Source: Micrococcus luteus NCTC 2665 (GTDB lineage: Bacteria; Actinomycetota; Actinomycetes; Actinomycetales; Micrococcaceae). From it: a stretch of DNA of 32,000 bases. The notes beneath the pieces are model-generated. The model saw only the letters and a program-made list of their open reading frames with translations, did no database searches and was not told where the DNA came from. Position numbers and translations under genes: made by a program. The DNA is taken from positions 240,001 through 272,000 of the forward strand of contig NC_012803.1 of NCBI RefSeq assembly GCF_000023205.1, read 5' to 3'. Every line of letters begins with the position of its first letter. The first letter of the stretch is position 1. Of the stretch, positions 2,800 to 10,644 are shown in pieces.

Positions 2800-4413
2800 A
2801 TGACCACCCCTCCCGTCACCGTCACGCTCGGCACGTCCGGGGCCACCCTGGACGACGTCGTCGCCGTGGCCCGCCACGACGCCCGCGTGGTGCTCGCCGA
2901 CGACGTGCTCGAGACCGTCGGCGCGGTGCGCCGCCACGTCGAGGCGCTGGCCGAGGCCGAGACCCCCACCTACGGCGTCTCCACCGGCTTCGGCGCGCTC
3001 GCGGACAAGCACATCCCGCTCGAGTCCCGCGCGCAGCTGCAGAAGTCCCTGATCCGCTCCCACGCCGCCGGCATGGGCCCCGTGGTGGAGCGCGAGGTCG
3101 TCCGCGCGCTGATGTTCCTGCGGGCCACCACGCTGGCCTCCGGCCGCACGGGCGTGCGCCCCGTGGTGGTCGAGACCTTCGTGGCCATGCTCAACGCGGG
3201 CATCACCCCCGCCGTGCGCGAGTTCGGCTCCCTGGGCTGCTCCGGTGACCTCGCACCGCTCTCCCACGTGGCCCTGGCGCTGATGGGCGAGGGCGACGTC
3301 GTCGGGACGGACGGCGCGCTGCGTCCGGCCGGCGAGGCGCTCGCCGAGGCCGGGATCGAGCCGGTCGAGCTGCGGGAGAAGGAGGGCCTGGCCCTCGTCA
3401 ACGGCACCGAGGGCATGCTCGGCATGCTGATCATGGCGCTGGCCGACCTCGAGGAGCTCGCCGACACCGTGGACCTCACCGCCGCGATGTCCGTGGAGGC
3501 GCTGCTCGGCACCGACCGCGTGTTCGTGCCGGAGCTGCACCTGCCGCTGCGCCCCCACCCGGGCCAGGCGACCTCCGCCGACCGGATGCTGAGGATCCTG
3601 GCGGGCTCGCCGATCGTGGCCAGCCACAAGGAGGGCGACTCCCGCGTGCAGGACGCCTACTCGCTGCGCTGCGCCCCGCAGGTGGCCGGCGGCCTGCGCG
3701 ACACCCTCGCGTACGTGCGCACCGTGGCCGAGCGTGAGCTCGCCGCGACCGTGGACAACCCGGTGGTGCTCGACGACGGCCGGGTGAGCTCGAACGGCAA
3801 CTTCCACGGGGCGCCCGTGGCGTACGTGCTGGACTTCCTGGCCATCCCGGTGGCCGACGTCGCCAGCATGTCCGAGCGCCGCACCGACCGCATGCTGGAC
3901 CCGGCCCGCTCGCACGGGCTGCCCGCGTTCCTCGTGGACGACCCGGGCGTGGACTCCGGCATGATGATCGCCCAGTACACGCAGGCCGGGCTCGTCTCGG
4001 ACATGAAGCGCCTGGCCGTGCCCGCGTCCGTGGACTCCATCCCGTCCTCCGCGATGCAGGAGGACCACGTCTCCATGGGTTGGCACGCCGCCCGCAAGCT
4101 GCGCTCGGCCGTGGAGAACTTCCGCCGCGTGCTCGCCGTCGAGCTCGTGGCCGCCGCCCGCGCGATCGAGCTGCGCGCGCCGCTGCAGCCCTCCGCCGCG
4201 ACCGGTGCCGCCGTCCGCGTGATCCGCGAGGCCGACGTCCCCGGTCCGGGCCCGGACCAGTACATGGCGCCGCAGCTGGCCGCCGCCGAGCAGGCCCTGC
4301 GCGACGGGTCCGTGCTGGCCGCCGTGGCGGAGGCGCTCGCGGGCGTGTCCGCCGACGCCGAGCCGCAGGACCTGGCCGAGGAGTCCGAGGGCGCCGGGGC
4401 CGAGGGGCACTGA
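2800..4413 (+). CDS. hutH: Histidine ammonia-lyase (MIO-dependent)
   Basis: ATG at 2800, preceded by AAGGAGA (2783-2789). Contains YGVSTGFGALA, GSLGCSGDLAPLSH (MIO-forming tripeptide region), NGTEGM and QEDHVSMG. Confidence 0.95.
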   Translation: MTTPPVTVTLGTSGATLDDVVAVARHDARVVLADDVLETVGAVRRHVEALAEAETPTYGVSTGFGALADKHIPLESRAQLQKSLIRSHAAGMGPVVEREVVRALMFLRATTLASGRTGVRPVVVETFVAMLNAGITPAVREFGSLGCSGDLAPLSHVALALMGEGDVVGTDGALRPAGEALAEAGIEPVELREKEGLALVNGTEGMLGMLIMALADLEELADTVDLTAAMSVEALLGTDRVFVPELHLPLRPHPGQATSADRMLRILAGSPIVASHKEGDSRVQDAYSLRCAPQVAGGLRDTLAYVRTVAERELAATVDNPVVLDDGRVSSNGNFHGAPVAYVLDFLAIPVADVASMSERRTDRMLDPARSHGLPAFLVDDPGVDSGMMIAQYTQAGLVSDMKRLAVPASVDSIPSSAMQEDHVSMGWHAARKLRSAVENFRRVLAVELVAAARAIELRAPLQPSAATGAAVRVIREADVPGPGPDQYMAPQLAAAEQALRDGSVLAAVAEALAGVSADAEPQDLAEESEGAGAEGH

Positions 4414-4434
4414 CGCTGCCGAGCGGCCCGACGC

Positions 4435-4497
4435 CACAGAGTGGTCACGACATGCCGCGTGCGTCTGGAATGGACGGCGTGTCGTGACCACTCTGTG
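4435..4497. terminator. Long hairpin: 18-bp perfect arms (CACAGAGTGGTCACGACA / TGTCGTGACCACTCTGTG) around a 27-nt partly self-pairing loop. Probable bidirectional terminator of the ancestral convergent hutH / hutG pair.
   Basis: Arms at 4435-4452 and 4480-4497 are exact reverse complements. The hairpin starts 22 nt after the hutH stop and ends 43 nt before the relic hutG stop at 4540. Confidence 0.55.
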
Positions 4498-4539
4498 TGC
4501 GGAGGGGGCGGCCTGCGGGTCGGGCCGGTCGGCTCCGGC

Positions 4540-4596
4540 TCAGGTGAGGAGCGCCGTCGTCGTCCTGTGCCTGCTGACGATCGTATGGATCAGGCG
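4540..4596 (-). pseudogene. hutG: Relic 3' end of hutG (19 codons plus stop, ...RLIHTIVSRHRTTTALLT*). Proposed attL-side direct repeat.
   Basis: Hand alignment to 9598-9654 (...RLIHTIVSRHRTDASLLA*) gives 44/57 nt identical, in the same register and with its own TGA. The core 25-mer at 4573-4597 matches 9631-9655 at 23/25. Confidence 0.6.
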
Positions 4597-4690
4597 GGAG
4601 ACAATCCGGGCAACGTCATGTGGTTGGTGTCGTGGGGTGAAGCCGGAACGGCGCGATCAGTCCGACTGCAGCACGACACCAGCTAAGGGC

Positions 4691-5230
4691 TTATCCCAGG
4701 AGTCCCTGTTGTTCGGCCCAGCACTTGAATCCTCCTGGGCCGAAGGGAAGCCGGTAATCGCCCATGATGAGATCGTCAGCGAGGCTCTCAACCATGGGAA
4801 CGGTGAGTTGCTCCTTGCGGATCGCCTCACAGAGCAACCCGAGGGTGCCGGTGCACTCGAGCTTCTCGCGCTTGGCCAGGACGCGGGGCACGTTGTCGTC
4901 GATCACGATGCGATACCCGTGCGTCCGACCGAGGGCTAGAACGCCGCATTCGCCCCGGTTCCGACCGCCCGCCACAAGGTGCTCCTCGTATCGGGCGAAG
5001 GCCGCGAGGAACTCGAGGTCCTCGCTGCGGTCCACGACGATCCATTCGGCGTCCAAGATCTGCCGGAGATCTGGGTGCTGGTACTGCTGGTCCCTGATCT
5101 CCTGCTCCACACTCTCCGGAATCACGGCATGGCCGGCTGTCAGGAACTTGAGCACACCGAGCCATCCTTTCAGGGTGAAATGGCGCAGTGGTCCCGTATC
5201 GAAGACGTAGGTCTCCGGAACGGCGGTCAC
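4691..5230 (-). CDS. PIN-like nuclease domain protein (DUF3368-like). Putative toxin.
   Basis: GTG start at 5230 overlaps the stop of the upstream gene (GTGA). Motifs: YVFDTGPL (N-terminal Asp), IPESVEQEI, GECGVLALG, IVIDDNVPR and TGTLGLL. These match the DUF3368/PIN pattern as I remember it. Confidence 0.7.
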   Translation of the reverse strand: MTAVPETYVFDTGPLRHFTLKGWLGVLKFLTAGHAVIPESVEQEIRDQQYQHPDLRQILDAEWIVVDRSEDLEFLAAFARYEEHLVAGGRNRGECGVLALGRTHGYRIVIDDNVPRVLAKREKLECTGTLGLLCEAIRKEQLTVPMVESLADDLIMGDYRLPFGPGGFKCWAEQQGLLG

Positions 5231-6339
5231 GAGACGTACTCCCAGATCTCCTGTTCCTGACGTGGGGGAAGGTCCGGAAGGTCGTCGTCGTCGAAAGTCC
5301 CATCCAAGAGGTCGAGTGTGCGTTCACGCGAGAGCTTCTCGGCCTCGAACAGCGCGATGACGTGCTTCTGGTACACCCGGGGCTGGGTAGTGCCTGCCAT
5401 CTCGTCAGACGGGTACAGATCGTGGGTGATGATGTCCGTCTGCGTGGTCTGCACAGCGCGGATGTCGTTTGCCGTGGAAGCGTCCACCAATTCCAGGTCG
5501 TGGAGTCGGCGGGCCAGGGTCGACATGTCCACCAGGTAGGTGCCGGCGATCTTCACAGCGGCAGTGCGGACATCGCCTGAGTGAGCTGCGGCGGGCCATT
5601 CCTGTAAAAGGACAGCTGCTGGCAGGAGAAATGCTCGAGCGAACCGATCGAGGCGACCCTCGATGTCCGGGCCGGTGTGGGCGGTGCGCCAGTCCACCGT
5701 GTATTCATCGGCAAGTAGGTAGTGCCCAAGCTCGTGCACGGCGGAGAGGCGGCGTCGCCCGACCTTGGGGGTGGAATTCACCAGGGAGATGCCGCCCTCG
5801 GCGAGGAGCACCGTTCCCGCGTCAGCGGCGTCCACGCCGAAGTTGCGGGAGAACAGGAGCAGGCCAGCAGTGGCCAGGTGCGCCTGGAGGTCCTTTACGG
5901 GTTCCGTTGCTGTATACCCGACGTGCTCGCGTGCCCGGGCGGCCATGTCGTCGGCCTCGTGAACGGACTTGGGCTGCTCCCAGGGGTCCCGCACGCCGAA
6001 CCCCTCGATGGGATGCAGGCCGTGCAGGAACTCGACGTCTGCGAGGAGTTCGGCCAGCAGGTGGTCCACGGCCGACTCGGTGGTATCCAACCCCTGGGCG
6101 GAACGGTGCGAGACGAGCGCTGGCGCAGGCTCGGTGAAGAACGACTGCATTCGGGTTCCCAGGGCATCGGCGATGGAGGCCAGCTCCAGGGCAGTGACCT
6201 TCCGTTGTCCGCCTTCGATCCGGTTGACCATGGTGCGCTCGAGGCCAACGGCGGTAGCTAGGTCCTGCTGGGACATCCCGCGACGCTCCCGCGCGGCACG
6301 TACACGGGCACCCAGCGAATGAGGAGTGGTCGGCGACAT
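5227..6339 (-). CDS. Fusion protein: XRE-family HTH, then ImmA/IrrE (COG2856) zinc metallopeptidase, then a C-terminal tail. Putative antitoxin/regulator.
   Basis: HTH: LGARVRAARERRGMSQQDLATAVGLERTMVNRIEGGQRKV. HEXXH motif: AVHELGHYLL, followed by FARAFLLPA. ATG at 6339 (MSPTTPHS...); an alternative in-frame ATG lies at 6360. Translationally coupled to the PIN gene. Confidence 0.85.
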   Translation of the reverse strand: MSPTTPHSLGARVRAARERRGMSQQDLATAVGLERTMVNRIEGGQRKVTALELASIADALGTRMQSFFTEPAPALVSHRSAQGLDTTESAVDHLLAELLADVEFLHGLHPIEGFGVRDPWEQPKSVHEADDMAARAREHVGYTATEPVKDLQAHLATAGLLLFSRNFGVDAADAGTVLLAEGGISLVNSTPKVGRRRLSAVHELGHYLLADEYTVDWRTAHTGPDIEGRLDRFARAFLLPAAVLLQEWPAAAHSGDVRTAAVKIAGTYLVDMSTLARRLHDLELVDASTANDIRAVQTTQTDIITHDLYPSDEMAGTTQPRVYQKHVIALFEAEKLSRERTLDLLDGTFDDDDLPDLPPRQEQEIWEYVS

Positions 6340-6361
6340 GTGTGCGATTCTCGCACACATG
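6337..6361. promoter_or_regulatory. Perfect 11-3-11 palindrome CATGTGTGCGA-TTC-TCGCACACATG overlapping both candidate start codons of the XRE-ImmA gene. Probable autoregulatory operator.
   Basis: Read directly. The half-sites are exact reverse complements. The spacing suits a dimeric HTH protein. It sits in the 90-bp divergent gap between the XRE-ImmA gene and the hsdR remnant. Confidence 0.55.
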
Positions 6362-6374
6362 GCACTGGCGGTGA

Positions 6375-8747
6375 ACCCTCGTCGCATACGCTGATGCGTT
6401 CGAGAACAAGCGCCGCGCCGCACTGCTGGTGATGGCCACCGGCACCGGGAAGACGTGCACCGCCGTCGCCCTGGTGGACCAGATGGCCCGCGCCGGATGG
6501 GTCAAGCGCGTGCTCTTCCTGGCGGACCGGCAGGCCCTCGTGAAGCAGGCCGCGGACGCCTTCGTGGAGCACGGCTTCGTCGGCACCACCGTGAACCTGC
6601 TGAAGAACCGGCACGGGGAGGGACGCGTCTACGCCTCCACCTACCCCACCATGCTCGGCCTCATCCAGGAGTCCACCGGCCAGGGCGCCCGCTTCGACCC
6701 CGGATACTTCGACCTGGTGATCGTGGACGAGGCCCACCGGTCCGTATACGCCAAGTACGGCGAGATCTTCCGCCACTTCGATGCCCTTCTCGTGGGCCTC
6801 ACCGCCACCCCCAAGGACGAGATCGACCGGAACACCTACGGCCTCTTCGGCCTCGAGCCCGGCGTGCCGACTGATGCCTACACCCTCGACGAGGCCGTGG
6901 CGGACGGGTTCCTGGTGCCGCCGCGGGGCGTCTCCGTGGGCACCACCTTCCTGCGTCGCGGCACCCGGTACGATCAGCTTCCCGCCGAGGAGCAGGAGGC
7001 CTGGGACGCGCTGGACTGGGGCGAGGACGAGGCGCCCGAGGAGGTTTCGAGCGAGGAGATCAACCGGTTCCTCTTCAATGCGGACACCGTGGACCGCGTG
7101 CTCTCCACCCTCAGGGAGCACGGCCACAAGGTGGCCGACGGCGAACGGCTCGGCAAGACCATCGTCTTCGCCAAGAACCAGCCGCACGCCGAGTTCATCC
7201 TGCAGCGGTTCGACGCCCAGTGGCCGGAGCTCGGCGGCCGGTACGCCCAGATCATCACCCACGCCAGCCGCTACCCGGACGCCCTGCTGGACGACTTCAA
7301 GACCCCCGGCAAGGCCCCGCACATCGCCATCAGCGTGGACATGCTGGACACGGGGGTGGACGTGCCCGACGTCGTCAACCTCGTGTTCTTCAAGCTCATC
7401 CGCTCCAAGACCAAGTTCTGGCAGATGATCGGCCGCGGCACCCGCCTGCGCCCGGACCTCTACGGGCCGGGGAGGGACAAGGAGGACTTCCTCGTCTTCG
7501 ACTGGTGCCAGAACCTCGAGTTCTTCAACCAGGACCTCCCGGAGTCCGACGGCTTCACCCAGAGGTCCCTCACCCAGCGGTTGTTCGAGGACCGGCTCGC
7601 GCTCGTCGTCGCCCTCGACGCGCTGGACGACGATGCCGGGGCGCCCGCCGCCGTCGGGCCGGAGGAACGCGCGGTGCGCGAGCTACGCCGCACCGCCGCC
7701 GAGGAGCTGCAGGCGGCCATCGCCCGCCTGACCCTCGAGAACGTCCTGGCCCGCCCCCACCGCAGGGAGGTCGAGGAGTTCCAGCGGCCTGAGGCGTGGA
7801 CGTCCCTGAGCGCCCAGGCCGCCGAACGGGCACGCGCGCTGGCCGGTGTGGTCACCGGGCTGCCGGGGGAGGACATCGACGCCAAGCGCTTCGACCTGCT
7901 CATCGTGCGCCGGCAGCTGGCAGACCTCACCGGGGAGGCCGGCACGGCCGAGCGCATCCGGACCACGGTGCAGTCCCTCGCGGAGAACCTGCTCTCCAAG
8001 GACGCCATCCCCGCCATCAAGGAACAGATCATCCTCCTCGAGGCCGTGGCCGGAGAGGAATGGTGGGAGGGCGTCACTCTCGGCATGCTCGAGCACGCCC
8101 GGAAGAAGCTGCGCGGGCTCGTCCAGTTCATCGAGAAGGTCCGCCGCTCCCGCGTATACACGGACTTCGCGGACACGCTCACGCAGCTTGAGGAGGTCGA
8201 CGTCGTGCGGCCGACGCCCGGCGTGGACATCGAACGGTTCTGGGCCAAGGTCAGCGAGCCGCTGCGCCGCAACGAGTCCTCGCTGGCGCTGCAGAAGCTG
8301 CGCCACGGCAAGCAGCTCACCAAGCAGGACCTGGAGTCGCTCGAACAGCTGCTCCGGAGCATCGGGGCCGAGGACGTGCACCTGGCCGCGGCGAAGTCCG
8401 AGGGCGAGGGACAGCTGGGCCTGTTCGTGCGCATGCTAGTGGGGATGGATCGCGCCGCCGCGCAGGGTGTGGTCGCGGACTTCGTCCAGGACCGGACGCT
8501 CACCCAGGCGCAGATCCGCTTCCTGGGTCACATGGTGGAGGAGCTGACCGCCAACGGCGTCCTGGACGCCGGCCGGCTGTTCGAGTCCCCCTACACGGAC
8601 GACGCCCCCGAGGGGCCGTTCGGCCTGTTCGAGGAGGCGCAGGTGTACTCCCTGCGCGAGCGGCTGGACCTCGTCCGGGCGTCTGCGATGGTGCCGGGAC
8701 CAGAAGCGAACGCGGACGGGGACGAGGCGTGCGGCGTCGTCGCATGA
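6375..8747 (+). pseudogene. hsdR: 5'-truncated type I restriction enzyme R subunit (EcoEI/COG4096-like HsdR). The helicase core and EcoEI_R_C-like C-terminus are retained; the nuclease N-terminal domain is missing.
   Basis: The open frame after TGA 6372-6374 reads TLVAYADAFENKRRAALLVMATGTGKTCTAVALVDQMARAGWVKRVLFLADRQALVKQA (Walker A about 20 codons from the frame start). DEAH box: VIVDEAHRS. TATP, DMLDTGVDVP and QMIGRGTR motifs are present. The C-terminus (...RFLGHMVEELTANGVLD...LFESPYTD) resembles the EcoEI R C-terminal domain. No hsdM or hsdS is nearby. Only GTG 6429 or ATG 6432, inside the Walker A region, is available as a start. Confidence 0.8.
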
Positions 8748-8824
8748 CCTCACCGGACGGTGAGCCGAGTCGTGATATCCGCCCTTCTGCGAGCCTCCAG
8801 TTTCTATGACTGCTCACGTAGTGT

Positions 8825-9151
8825 TCAGACATGACTCCCGTCACCTGCCCCAGGGCCCCCAAGCGAGGCCATAGGAAAGAGACTGCTCGTGCACGTTGTC
8901 CGCACTGTGGCTCTTCCCCAGGTCCGGGCGTTACCCCACCAACAGAGACATTGATCGCTCTGCCCCCAGGGCCGGAGGGTGCCGATAGACAGACTTCCCC
9001 AATGGAATGTGAGCGACGTCGTCGAATCGATGAAGTGCTTCAGTTGGCTGGTGACCTTCTGGTCACGGAAAGCATCCGGGAAGTTCGTACGCACCTTCTC
9101 GATTTTGCCGTAGCCTACGGCGAACAGGGGCGTGGACGAGTGCGGCGCCAT
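8825..9151 (-). CDS. Hypothetical ORF, possibly a decayed fragment.
   Basis: The first ~50 codons (MAPHSSTPLFAVGYGKIEKVRTNFPDAFRDQKVTSQLKHFIDSTTSL...) have clearly higher GC3 than the opposite-strand frame. The distal half is Trp/Cys/Arg-rich and looks non-coding. No family recognised. Confidence 0.25.
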   Translation of the reverse strand: MAPHSSTPLFAVGYGKIEKVRTNFPDAFRDQKVTSQLKHFIDSTTSLTFHWGSLSIGTLRPWGQSDQCLCWWGNARTWGRATVRTTCTSSLFPMASLGGPGAGDGSHV

Positions 9152-9154
9152 GCT

Positions 9155-9466
9155 ATGTGCCAGGTACTTGCCGAGGTGGCGAATGCGCTAGATCCAGGCG
9201 AATACATCGATGAAGCAGCCGCTCGCATCAGGACAGCCCTCGCCACGGCAGGTCTTCCTCGACCGGTCGTCGCCTTGGCAATCGCAGCGACAAAGAAGAT
9301 TGCAGCGGGAGCCGTGGAGGGGATCAATCCGACTGAGCAGATTCGTTTGGCGATCTGGATGCTCATCTCTGTGCTCTGCCCGAGGCCGGAGGTGTGCCCG
9401 GCTCAGCCAAAATCAGGCGTGGAGGTTCTTAAAGAAGCTCTGGAAGATGCAGAGTCTGTTTTCTGA
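9155..9466 (+). CDS. Hypothetical small protein (103 aa), island cargo.
   Basis: Internal ATG of ORF 8831..9466. The composition looks protein-like (MCQVLAEVANALDPGEYIDEAAARIRTALATAGLPRPVVALAIAATKKIAAGAVEG...). Low GC. Divergent from the 8825..9151 ORF with a 3-nt gap. No family recognised. Confidence 0.35.
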   Translation: MCQVLAEVANALDPGEYIDEAAARIRTALATAGLPRPVVALAIAATKKIAAGAVEGINPTEQIRLAIWMLISVLCPRPEVCPAQPKSGVEVLKEALEDAESVF

Positions 9467-9507
9467 TCATCACAGAGGCTGAGTGACCCTCAACGCACCT
9501 CGCTACC

Positions 9508-9573
9508 TCAGCGGCGGTGGCGGCCGACGATCGTGTGGATCAGCCGCACCGCGGCCCTCGCGGTGCGGCCCCC
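9508..9573 (-). pseudogene. hutG: Second relic copy of the hutG 3' end (GGRTARAAVRLIHTIVGRHRR*), 108 nt from the functional copy.
   Basis: 9514-9570 aligns with 9622-9678. The core at 9523-9547 matches 9631-9655 at 23/25. It has its own TGA at 9508-9510 and is in the same frame as hutG. Confidence 0.55.
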
Positions 9574-9597
9574 GCGCCCGAATGGACCCCGGCCCGC

Positions 9598-10644
9598 TCA
9601 GGCCAGCAGCGACGCGTCCGTCCGGTGACGGCTGACGATCGTGTGGATCAGCCGGGCCGCGGCCTTCGCCGTGCGGCCGTCCACGTCCAGGGCGGGGTTG
9701 AGCTCCACGACGTCGGCCAGGGCCAGCTTCCCGGACTGGGTGGCCTCCAGTGTGCACGCGTGGATCACCTCGTACGGCACGCCGAAGCCGGCCGGTGCGC
9801 TCACCCCCGGGGCGACGGCGGCCGGCAGCACATCCAGGTCGATCGTCAGGTAGAGCACGTCCACGGCGGTGATGAACGAGCGCACCCAGCGGCGCACGCC
9901 GGTGACGTCGGCGGTCTGGGCCTGCTCGTCGGTCACCCACGTGACCCCGCGTTCGCGCGCGGTGTCGAACAGGGCGCGGGTGTTGTTGGCCTCGCTGATG
10001 CCCACCACCGCGTAGGAGAGCTGATGCTCCGCCCCCTCGGCGTCCCGCAGCGCCTGCAGGAACGGGGTGCCGGAGCTGGGCCGCGGCGCCTCGCGCAGGT
10101 CGAAGTGCGCGTCCAGGTTGAGGATGCCCACGCGGGTGCCCGCAGCCACGCGCGTGGAGCCGGTCAGCCCCGTGATCGAGGCGTAGGCGGTCTCGTGCCC
10201 GCCGCCGAGCACCACGGCCAGGTCGTGGGCGTTCAGCAGCCCGCTGACCACTGTGCCCAGCTCGGCCTGGCCCGCCTCGAGCTCGCCCGGGGCGTCGTCG
10301 TCGCCGCGGTCCACGGACACGTCGCCCGCGTCCACGAGCGCGCCCGTGCCCTCGAGGTACGCGAGCGAGGCGAGAGCGCCGCGCAGCGCCTCCGGGCCGT
10401 CCTCGGCGCCCACGCGGCCGTGGTTCCGGCGCACGCCCTCGTCCGAGGCGAAGCCGATGAGCGCCGTGGACCGCGCGCCCGACGTCGGAGCGCCGGCGCC
10501 GGGGTCGCGCTGCGGCGTCGTGGGATCGCCGCGGCCGTCGGCGGGGCGGACGACCTGGTGCCAGCGCAGGTGCTCGGGGGTGTCACCGTCGGTGCGGCCG
10601 GTCCAGGCGGGGGAGAGGGACGGGGAGGGGAGCTCGGAGGTCAT
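9598..10644 (-). CDS. hutG: Formimidoylglutamase (arginase/ureohydrolase superfamily)
   Basis: C-terminal 348 codons of track ORF 9598..11922. ATG at 10644 (MTSELPSP...); alternative at 10662. Motifs: LGGGHETAY, NLDAHFDLR, TIDLDVL, APGVSAP. The upstream part of the long ORF is an Arg/Pro-rich shadow frame over the neighbouring genes. Confidence 0.88.
   Translation of the reverse strand: MTSELPSPSLSPAWTGRTDGDTPEHLRWHQVVRPADGRGDPTTPQRDPGAGAPTSGARSTALIGFASDEGVRRNHGRVGAEDGPEALRGALASLAYLEGTGALVDAGDVSVDRGDDDAPGELEAGQAELGTVVSGLLNAHDLAVVLGGGHETAYASITGLTGSTRVAAGTRVGILNLDAHFDLREAPRPSSGTPFLQALRDAEGAEHQLSYAVVGISEANNTRALFDTARERGVTWVTDEQAQTADVTGVRRWVRSFITAVDVLYLTIDLDVLPAAVAPGVSAPAGFGVPYEVIHACTLEATQSGKLALADVVELNPALDVDGRTAKAAARLIHTIVSRHRTDASLLA

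Follow-up and report, generated by a model that had tools for sequence, protein, structure and literature searches.

Proteins that combine an XRE-type helix-turn-helix (HTH) domain with a Zn-peptidase of the ImmA/IrrE type (COG2856, DUF955 or Peptidase_M78) are known neighbors of toxin genes. According to Makarova, Wolf and Koonin (2009; PMC2701414), COG2856 is fused to Xre in over half of the cases, and such fusions are often co-operonic with PIN or RelE toxins, with 42–60 PIN associations; the authors proposed a protease-controlled toxin–antitoxin (TA) circuit. Matelska et al. (2017; PMC5499597) named COG2405/DUF3368 and DUF4411 among the PIN families whose genes are co-transcribed with those for HTH and DUF955, citing a Geobacillus HTH–DUF955 fusion directly upstream of a COG2405 gene, and NetFlax (2023; PMC10440598) placed an ImmA/Rosmer antitoxin at a hub (node D25) that is linked to PIN-like toxins. 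Here we describe a pair of this type in Micrococcus luteus NCTC 2665. Within a 32-kb window (the whole stretch of DNA that was analyzed: contig NC_012803.1, positions 240,001 to 272,000; 73% G+C), the genes for a 370-aa HTH–peptidase fusion and for a 179-aa protein with a PIN fold lie next to each other on the minus strand. We conclude that they form a self-contained, horizontally acquired type II TA module of the RosmerTA/VapBC52 kind, which probably acts in abortive infection or in a stress or anti-phage response. The original prediction, made from the DNA sequence, considered this architecture to be non-canonical and knew of no experimental characterization of a PIN-linked fusion. Its observation was sound and its mechanistic intuition good, but this part of the reading does not hold, since the pairing of PIN with Xre–COG2856 was catalogued in the three studies cited above and the experimental gap was closed by the work on VapBC52 (PMC13273310). 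The module is therefore not a new class of system: its design was predicted years before, and the homologous VapBC52 was solved experimentally in 2026.

VapBC52 (Rv2514c/Rv2515c) is encoded by Mycobacterium tuberculosis, and its characterization (Nucleic Acids Research, June 2026; PMC13273310) identified VapC52 as a tRNase of the PIN type, related to DUF4411 proteins. The antitoxin, VapB52, begins with an HTH domain, continues with a middle domain that holds an IrrE-like Zn-peptidase and an HTH motif, and ends in a C-terminal domain of four helices. The crystal structure, a 1:2 complex, shows the N-terminal domain bound to the outer face of the toxin dimer, while the active site is occluded by the C-terminal domain. 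Single-stranded DNA (ssDNA) triggers an autocleavage that depends on the Zn site. The cut falls in the linker that joins the N-terminal to the middle domain and bears a conserved 'FR motif'; toxin binding is retained in the Zn-site mutant. The switch ligand, that is, the fourth Zn ligand, is C229, as in CapP. RosmerTA was originally described in the preprint of Millman et al. (2022), and other tested members include Kita phage RmrTA and pneumococcal RipAB. Neither of these two toxins is a PIN nuclease: Kita RmrT acts by depolarizing the membrane, and the target of RipA is the sliding clamp.

Relatives of the window pair were collected by scanning one genome per species with two PIN peptide motifs only, the fusion gene not being used. 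By this motif search, relatives were present in 105 of 185,579 species-representative genomes, adding a well-defined and widely conserved actinobacterial family to the HTH–M78 'sensor-antitoxin' systems; the locus counts below refer to the best 80 of these 105 loci. The original prediction had proposed surveying the neighborhoods of PIN homologues for the identity of the partner. We observed an HTH–M78 fusion gene directly upstream and on the same strand in 80 of 80 loci (full-length in 79, the remaining one being cut by a contig end). It had also reported that the two window genes overlap by GTGA, which is read directly from the sequence (Table 1), and an in-frame NTGA overlap (GTGA, ATGA or TTGA) occurs in 73 of the 80 loci. 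From this arrangement we infer that the two genes are translationally coupled. A Shine–Dalgarno-like GGGAG was noted 8 nt upstream of the PIN GTG, inside codons W366-E367-Y368 of the fusion gene (window 5238–5246, minus strand), and the conservation of W366 may in part reflect overlapping constraints at the level of the protein and of this translation signal. The hosts belong to Micrococcales, Propionibacteriales, Streptosporangiales, Streptomyces, Micromonospora, Nocardia, Mycolicibacterium, Corynebacterium, Actinomycetales and Acidimicrobiia. The sole non-actinobacterial record among the 80 loci (L063) is a metagenome-assembled genome labelled Candidatus Melainabacteria; it carries a typical actinobacterial-type operator, ACGTGTGCGATAATCGCACACGT, and may represent a mis-binned contig or a recent transfer.

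The 370-aa protein was found to be, as previously proposed, an XRE HTH joined to an ImmA/IrrE Zn-peptidase with the motif HELGH. The N-terminal part matched Pfam HTH_31/HTH_3, and Peptidase_M78 (PF06114) matched residues 186–280 with 32.5 bits (cutoff 22; E 8.6e-8). In an alignment of 46 full-length homologues (49–85% identity), H202, E203 and H206 do not vary, and E227 is conserved in at least 90% of the sequences; the HExxH motif and the downstream Glu were in register with those of CapP, IrrE and the Protein Data Bank (PDB) entry 9vzy. The AlphaFold2 (AF2) model, with a mean predicted local distance difference test score (pLDDT) of 86, shows a folded HTH, an alpha/beta peptidase core and a helical C-terminal region. 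In PADLOC the protein matched 14 RmrA models (the RosmerTA antitoxin), with a best E of 5.6e-22, and several of these matches cover residues ~5–345. Since the RmrA alignments reach residue ~345, most of the C-terminal tail belongs to the common RmrA scaffold and is not an add-on. The window pair thus resembles RosmerTA, in which an XRE HTH and an ImmA-type Zn-peptidase make up a hub antitoxin with swappable toxins, PIN-like ones included. In contrast, the window toxin matches no catalogued RmrT model; given that RmrT families are diverse, this limits the database call and not the functional analogy.

The relationship to VapB52 was examined at the level of family profiles. The window-family profile matched the PDB chain 9vzy_A, as well as CapP and IrrE chains; entry 9vzy contains three chains of 393 aa with the sequence HEFVH...C...E and is very probably VapB52-delta23. 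VapB52 homologues were collected and aligned, and the two family profiles were then compared with hhalign, which aligned the antitoxin families over 329 columns with 98.7% probability and E 2.1e-16, from residues 13–349 of the window protein to residues 2–371 of a 387-aa VapB52 homologue. In PADLOC, a VapB52 homologue likewise scores as RmrA, and the partner of a VapB52 homologue in locus L081 is a PF14367 DUF4411 protein whose gene shows a 4-bp overlap. When the full-length fusion served as a Foldseek query, the small HTH domain dominated the matches, which included IrrE and no VapB52 entry. The window pair and VapBC52 have in common an antitoxin built of an HTH, a linker, an M78 peptidase and a helical C-terminal domain, its position upstream of a PIN toxin gene with a 4-bp overlap (seen for the VapB52 type in L081), and an actinobacterial host; both linkers carry a conserved aromatic/His-Arg motif, at comparable but not identical positions.

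The C-terminal tail, of about 110 aa, is conserved over its full length and to the last residue (100% query coverage in the homologues). In the AF2 model it forms helices at residues 300–305, 321–332, 338–345 and 362–369, with pLDDT 86–96 over residues 301–360, and P320, R340, L345, L354, P355 and W366 are invariant. Two claims had been made about this tail, namely that one of its segments resembles the UPF0175 antitoxins and that it may hold the neutralizing domain. The first was not supported: UPF0175 (PF03683) gave no match with the whole fusion (E<=1), with 8 isolated tails (E<=10) or with 6 VapB52-family C-terminal domains, and the similarity noted by eye probably reflects the general appearance of any short helix-turn-helix-like pair. 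Weak, sub-threshold SHOCT-like matches on the same tail segment (E 0.0035–0.095) were judged uninformative. The second gained support, given that the flagged segment VYQKHVIALFEAEKLSRERTLDLLDG (~321–346) aligns with the segment GKAYVRAVTDAHRRRVIDSNTAAVYLDAKV of the VapB52-family C-terminal domain, which occludes the toxin in that system. By this analogy, the C-terminal domain is the probable toxin-neutralizing domain. The window pair shares with the DUF3368/COG2405 and UPF0175 (COG2886) pairs the same PIN lineage, as judged by fold and transitive homology, and a two-gene operon with the antitoxin first; unlike them, it has a three-part antitoxin of 370 aa in place of a small UPF0175 protein. 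The last ~20 residues (an acidic run, DLPxxRxRRxDEIWxFVS) are specific to the window family and constitute a good candidate for a toxin-family-specific contact. In FitAB and other VapBC structures, arginines of VapB-type antitoxins reach into the acidic PIN site.

Two further segments of the fusion deserve attention with respect to its possible activation. Residues 71–90 of the linker between the HTH and the peptidase were modelled with pLDDT 50–53, yet R79, S89 and D92 are the same in all aligned homologues, and H78 in at least 90% of them. Among 70 parsed family members, an [HY]R motif was present at this position in 60 (HR in 43 and YR in 17). By analogy with the FR motif of VapB52, H78-R79 is a candidate self-cleavage site. 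The second segment is the loop that follows HELGH, in which Y213, D216 and W217 are invariant and residues 214–222 have pLDDT <50.

The 179-aa protein was less accessible to profile searches. No Pfam or NCBIfam match was obtained at E<=1, PF11848 (DUF3368) did not match at E<=10, and sequence-profile searches of the PDB with alignments of the PIN family returned noise only. Among 44 close homologues, weak DUF3368 matches were detected in 3 (best E 0.034). An exhaustive HMMER search with the PIN protein reached 450 representative clusters, and among 52 of the more distant of these DUF3368 was detected in 13 (best E 1.1e-5) and PIN in 4; precomputed protein-database annotations give PF11848.14 for all of its homologues. 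The AF2 model (pLDDT 92) was then informative: all the top Foldseek matches in the PDB were PIN/VapC proteins with a probability of ~1.0, namely VapC11 (6a7v), AF0591 (1o4w), HARP RNase P, VapC4 and Shigella VapC. In the absence of a direct profile match, the PIN assignment rests on the fold and on transitive homology. The earlier description of this protein as a DUF3368-like PIN is thus upheld with respect to the fold and to the distant homologues, but not by a direct match to the DUF3368 profile. D11, E44, E94 and D111 are invariant in the 44 homologues, and E44 and D111 are still invariant in the broader set; from their conservation, these four are candidate catalytic acidic residues, as expected for a PIN acidic site. 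In PADLOC, residues 8–150 matched 7 PDC-S70 models (best E 1.9e-18), and no RmrT model was matched. PDC-S70 is a candidate PIN defence gene defined as a single gene (PMC12988326), one representative of which protected E. coli from T4, T5 and T7 (bioRxiv 10.1101/2024.09.26.614923). In our family the PIN gene does not stand alone, given that the fusion gene comes before it in each of the 80 loci.

Inspection of the region upstream of the pair revealed a feature absent from the original prediction, a perfect 25-nt palindrome that runs into the start codon of the fusion gene (Table 1). Its 17-nt core, TGTGC-N7-GCACA, occurs once in the 32-kb window (0.25 occurrences expected by chance) and is found again, with <=3 mismatches, in 69 of 79 related loci, nearly always ending 1 nt before the ATG or GTG. 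Across loci, the palindrome center reads GAGAAT, GATAAT, TAGAAT or TATAAT, is preceded by TGn and keeps a fixed spacing, 7 nt upstream of the start codon. Since the −10-like element is only 7 nt upstream of the ATG, a leaderless mRNA is implied. These sequence features suggest that the −10 is embedded in an operator of the HTH, which would lead to autorepression, and provide a handle on the autoregulation of the family. A longer, GTG-started open reading frame of 398 aa, extending to 6423, was rejected as the fusion gene because the homologues start at the ATG at 6339 and the conserved operator/−10 abuts that ATG. A generic terminator scan found no convincing terminator.

Taken together, these observations are consistent with the following model. 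The pair would be transcribed into a leaderless operon mRNA, and the XRE HTH of the 370-aa protein would bind the palindromic operator and repress its own promoter. The 179-aa protein would be a Mg-dependent PIN ribonuclease toxin, as suggested by the modelled fold and the conserved acidic residues, and its target would most likely be tRNA, by analogy with VapC toxins. The fusion would neutralize the toxin by direct binding, with its C-terminal domain over the PIN active site and its N-terminal domain as a second interface, as expected from the homology with VapB52. We hold this combination of TA function, autorepression and steric neutralization, taken as a whole, to be probable. As for activation, the M78 peptidase would be kept inactive by the mobile loop 214–222 until a signal of infection or DNA damage (ssDNA in VapB52 and CapP) activates it, whereupon it would cut its own linker near H78-R79, so that the operon is derepressed and the PIN toxin released. 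The idea that a signal-triggered self-cleavage frees the PIN toxin was already part of the original prediction; it has been demonstrated for VapB52, with ssDNA as the signal and the linker as the site, and by homology it would extend to the window family, in which we consider the chances of trigger-induced cleavage at the HR linker being the activation step to be, within the model, roughly even. CapP/CapH, IrrE/DdrO and ImmA/ImmR also pair an M78 Zn-peptidase with an XRE-type HTH repressor as its substrate, and respond to damage or infection signals with derepression. In the window system, by contrast, the protease and the repressor are a single polypeptide and the output would be the release of a toxin and not derepression alone; besides, the fusion has neither a GAF domain nor a cysteine switch.

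Several observations weigh against this model or against parts of it. First, the two toxins differ: the window toxin is of the DUF3368-like/PDC-S70 type and that of VapBC52 is of the DUF4411 type, both with a PIN fold, and hhalign related the window PIN family to the DUF4411 partner with a probability of only 1.2%. Since the toxins are unrelated in sequence, the binding geometry of VapBC52 is not simply transferable. Second, there is no Cys in residues 207–226 of the window protein, and any Cys was found there in only 7 of 70 family members; the window family has V/I-D-W in the switch loop where VapB52 has its Cys, and in the alignments the switch residue faces V215 or a gap. In the absence of the cysteine, the trigger and the chemistry of the switch may differ from those of VapB52. 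Third, the window linker carries HR or YR where VapB52 carries FR and is 4 residues shorter, so that the position of the motif is comparable and not identical, and the extreme C-terminus (the last ~20 residues) differs as well. Fourth, a generic E. coli-type promoter scan did not flag the proposed promoter, which is weak by the E. coli consensus. Fifth, a tblastn search of plasmid and phage collections with the PIN protein gave no match, and defence-gene neighbors were present in a minority of loci only, which makes the defence role less certain than the TA role. Finally, in the related system PD-lambda-2 it is the Xre-peptidase protein itself that is the toxic partner. Since the antitoxins are homologous and the PIN proteins dissimilar, the antitoxin scaffold is shared and the PIN has been swapped for one of another lineage. 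The family is of interest because a VapB52-type antitoxin scaffold is here reused although the PIN family is unrelated and the cysteine switch is lacking; the contrast could help to tell the general features of the VapB52 mechanism from the particular ones.

The lack of the VapB52/CapP cysteine switch bears on an explanation in which the pair is an ordinary type II TA system, its antitoxin being removed by Lon/Clp or in a ClpX-dependent step, while the M78 peptidase acts in trans on the PIN toxin, a phage protein or another repressor, and neutralization is proteolytic or adaptor-like and not steric. ImmA and IrrE both act in trans, cutting separate repressors, and RipB, the Rosmer antitoxin of RipAB, requires ClpX to counter its toxin. 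However, the 'CapP' and 'CapH' parts are both present in the window fusion, whose linker combines strong conservation with a poor model and has [HY]R where VapB52 has FR, and in VapB52 the cleavage is autocatalytic and the Zn-site mutant retains toxin binding. With these data, we consider it unlikely that the peptidase works in this manner.

PD-lambda-2 of E. coli raises the question of whether the roles could be reversed, with the HTH–peptidase fusion inhibiting growth and the PIN-like protein restraining it, because in that system the Xre-peptidase protein is toxic alone and is rescued by a HigB-like partner; in addition, NetFlax (PMC10440598) reported that the toxin/antitoxin assignment near the ImmA/Rosmer zone is uncertain. 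The pattern of gene decay among the 80 loci points in the opposite direction. In 5 of them the PIN gene is broken beside an intact fusion gene, by in-frame stops (L022, L023 and L031) or by frameshifts (L043 and L049), whereas the reverse was found in none, as expected if the PIN protein is the toxic partner; the broken genes may be toxin-inactivated remnants or draft-assembly errors. The invariance of the PIN catalytic residues, the usual antitoxin-first order of the genes with their 4-bp overlap, and the role of the PIN protein as the toxin in the homologous VapBC52 also argue against a reversal, which we regard as very improbable. Our assignment of the fusion as antitoxin and of the PIN protein as toxin is used in Table 1, which lists the coordinates of the features.

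Table 1. Features of the HTH–M78/PIN pair and of related loci (window positions unless stated otherwise)
Feature	Position	Strand	Remarks
Predicted antitoxin/repressor gene, 370 aa	5227–6339	−	ATG start at 6339; TGA stop at 5227–5229
Predicted toxin gene, 179-aa PIN-fold putative nuclease, DUF3368-like/PADLOC PDC-S70	4691–5230	−	GTG start at 5230
GTGA stop/start overlap	5227–5230	−	TGA of the upstream gene over GTG of the downstream gene; read from sequence
Perfect 25-nt palindrome CATGTGTGCGAGAATCGCACACATG, putative HTH operator	6337–6361	−	Ends in the ATG start codon
Palindrome core, 17 nt, TGTGCGAGAATCGCACA	6341–6357	−	TGTGC-N7-GCACA; encloses the −10-like hexamer
Putative promoter	6347–6375	−	−35-like TTCACC at 6370–6375; 17-nt spacer; TGn-extended −10-like GAGAAT at 6347–6352
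XRE-type HTH, residues 9–65	6145–6315	−	Pfam HTH_31/HTH_3, E 6e-11
Linker between HTH and peptidase, residues 66–95	6055–6144	−	H78-R79 at 6103–6108; candidate counterpart of the VapB52 'FR motif'
Zn-peptidase active site	5659–5736	−	HELGH at 5722–5736 (residues 202–206); switch-like loop; putative third ligand E227 at 5659–5661
Helical C-terminal domain, residues ~300–370	5230–5442	−	Residues 319–349 (5293–5385) align with the VapB52 C-terminal domain
hsdM in L001/L002 (N6_Mtase + HsdM_N)	1363–2889	−	Compared with window 6340–6600
Broken PIN genes	About 4001–4540 (locus coordinates); 1521–2057 in L022		L022, L023, L031, L043, L049

Divergent from the pair, we found a remnant of the R subunit of a type I restriction–modification (R-M) system (hsdR; 6375–8747, plus strand; ResIII and EcoEI_R_C), which begins at helicase motif I and covers only positions 370–1087 of the 1107-position REase_I profile. 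An in-frame stop lies in its reading frame exactly at the edge of the TA promoter, and neither hsdM nor hsdS was evident beside it. The R-M system thus appears to have been destroyed, whereas the TA pair is still there. The loci L001 and L002, from M. lylae and M. luteus MAW843, have the same hutH-adjacent pair, which is divergent from an intact hsdM. The homology of the window to these two loci stops ~45 nt upstream of the antitoxin ATG, a boundary that marks the upstream edge of the mobile unit. It seems that the window strain either lost hsdM and hsdS together with the 5′ part of hsdR or acquired a different junction.

This vicinity is relevant to a further explanation, according to which the fusion is chiefly a C-protein-like transcription controller of adjacent type I R-M genes and the PIN protein is an accessory nuclease and not a toxin. 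The closest solved structures of its HTH are the R-M controller proteins C.BclI and C.AhdI, the operon abuts hsdR or hsdM in the three Micrococcus loci described above, and in L081 (1370–7164) the pair formed by the VapB52 homologue and the DUF4411 PIN lies inside a type I R-M locus with the order hsdM, antitoxin–PIN, orf, hsdS, hsdR. Against it, a survey of flanking genes (65 upstream and 70 downstream) revealed R-M methylases in only ~3 of the 65 upstream neighbors and otherwise heterogeneous flanks, the operator lies on the promoter of the pair itself in 69 of 79 loci, and in the window the pair has outlasted its R-M system; we therefore judge a controller function of this kind to be extremely improbable. 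No third gene was conserved in the survey, nor did a defence-island context recur consistently; a few loci had R-M methylases, integrases, transposases or GmrSD nearby, and the association of the pair with type I R-M is suggestive but rare among the 80 loci. Nevertheless, two unrelated PIN families with the same antitoxin adjoin hsd genes (in the window and L001/L002, and in L081), from which the idea of a fail-safe arises. In this proposal, to which we give little credence, the fusion would be a self-cleaving antitoxin of the VapB52 type that is independent of a cysteine switch, its Y213/D216/W217 loop would sense a trigger other than ssDNA, and the module might be a PrrC-like fail-safe for a defeated type I R-M system.

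The module that we favor as a VapBC52-like TA system is located, together with the hsdR remnant, in a low-GC island of ~5 kb (window 4400–9600), whose G+C content of 60–69% is set against 73–78% in the flanks and points to a horizontal origin. It is bordered on one side by hutH, a Lyase_aromatic gene that ends at 4413, and on the other by housekeeping genes. There are no tRNA genes in the window, and hence no tRNA-linked integration site was found. A 211-aa open reading frame (8831–9466), to which no Pfam or PADLOC model was matched, occupies a stretch of the island with a very low G+C content, of ~60%, between 8800 and 9500.

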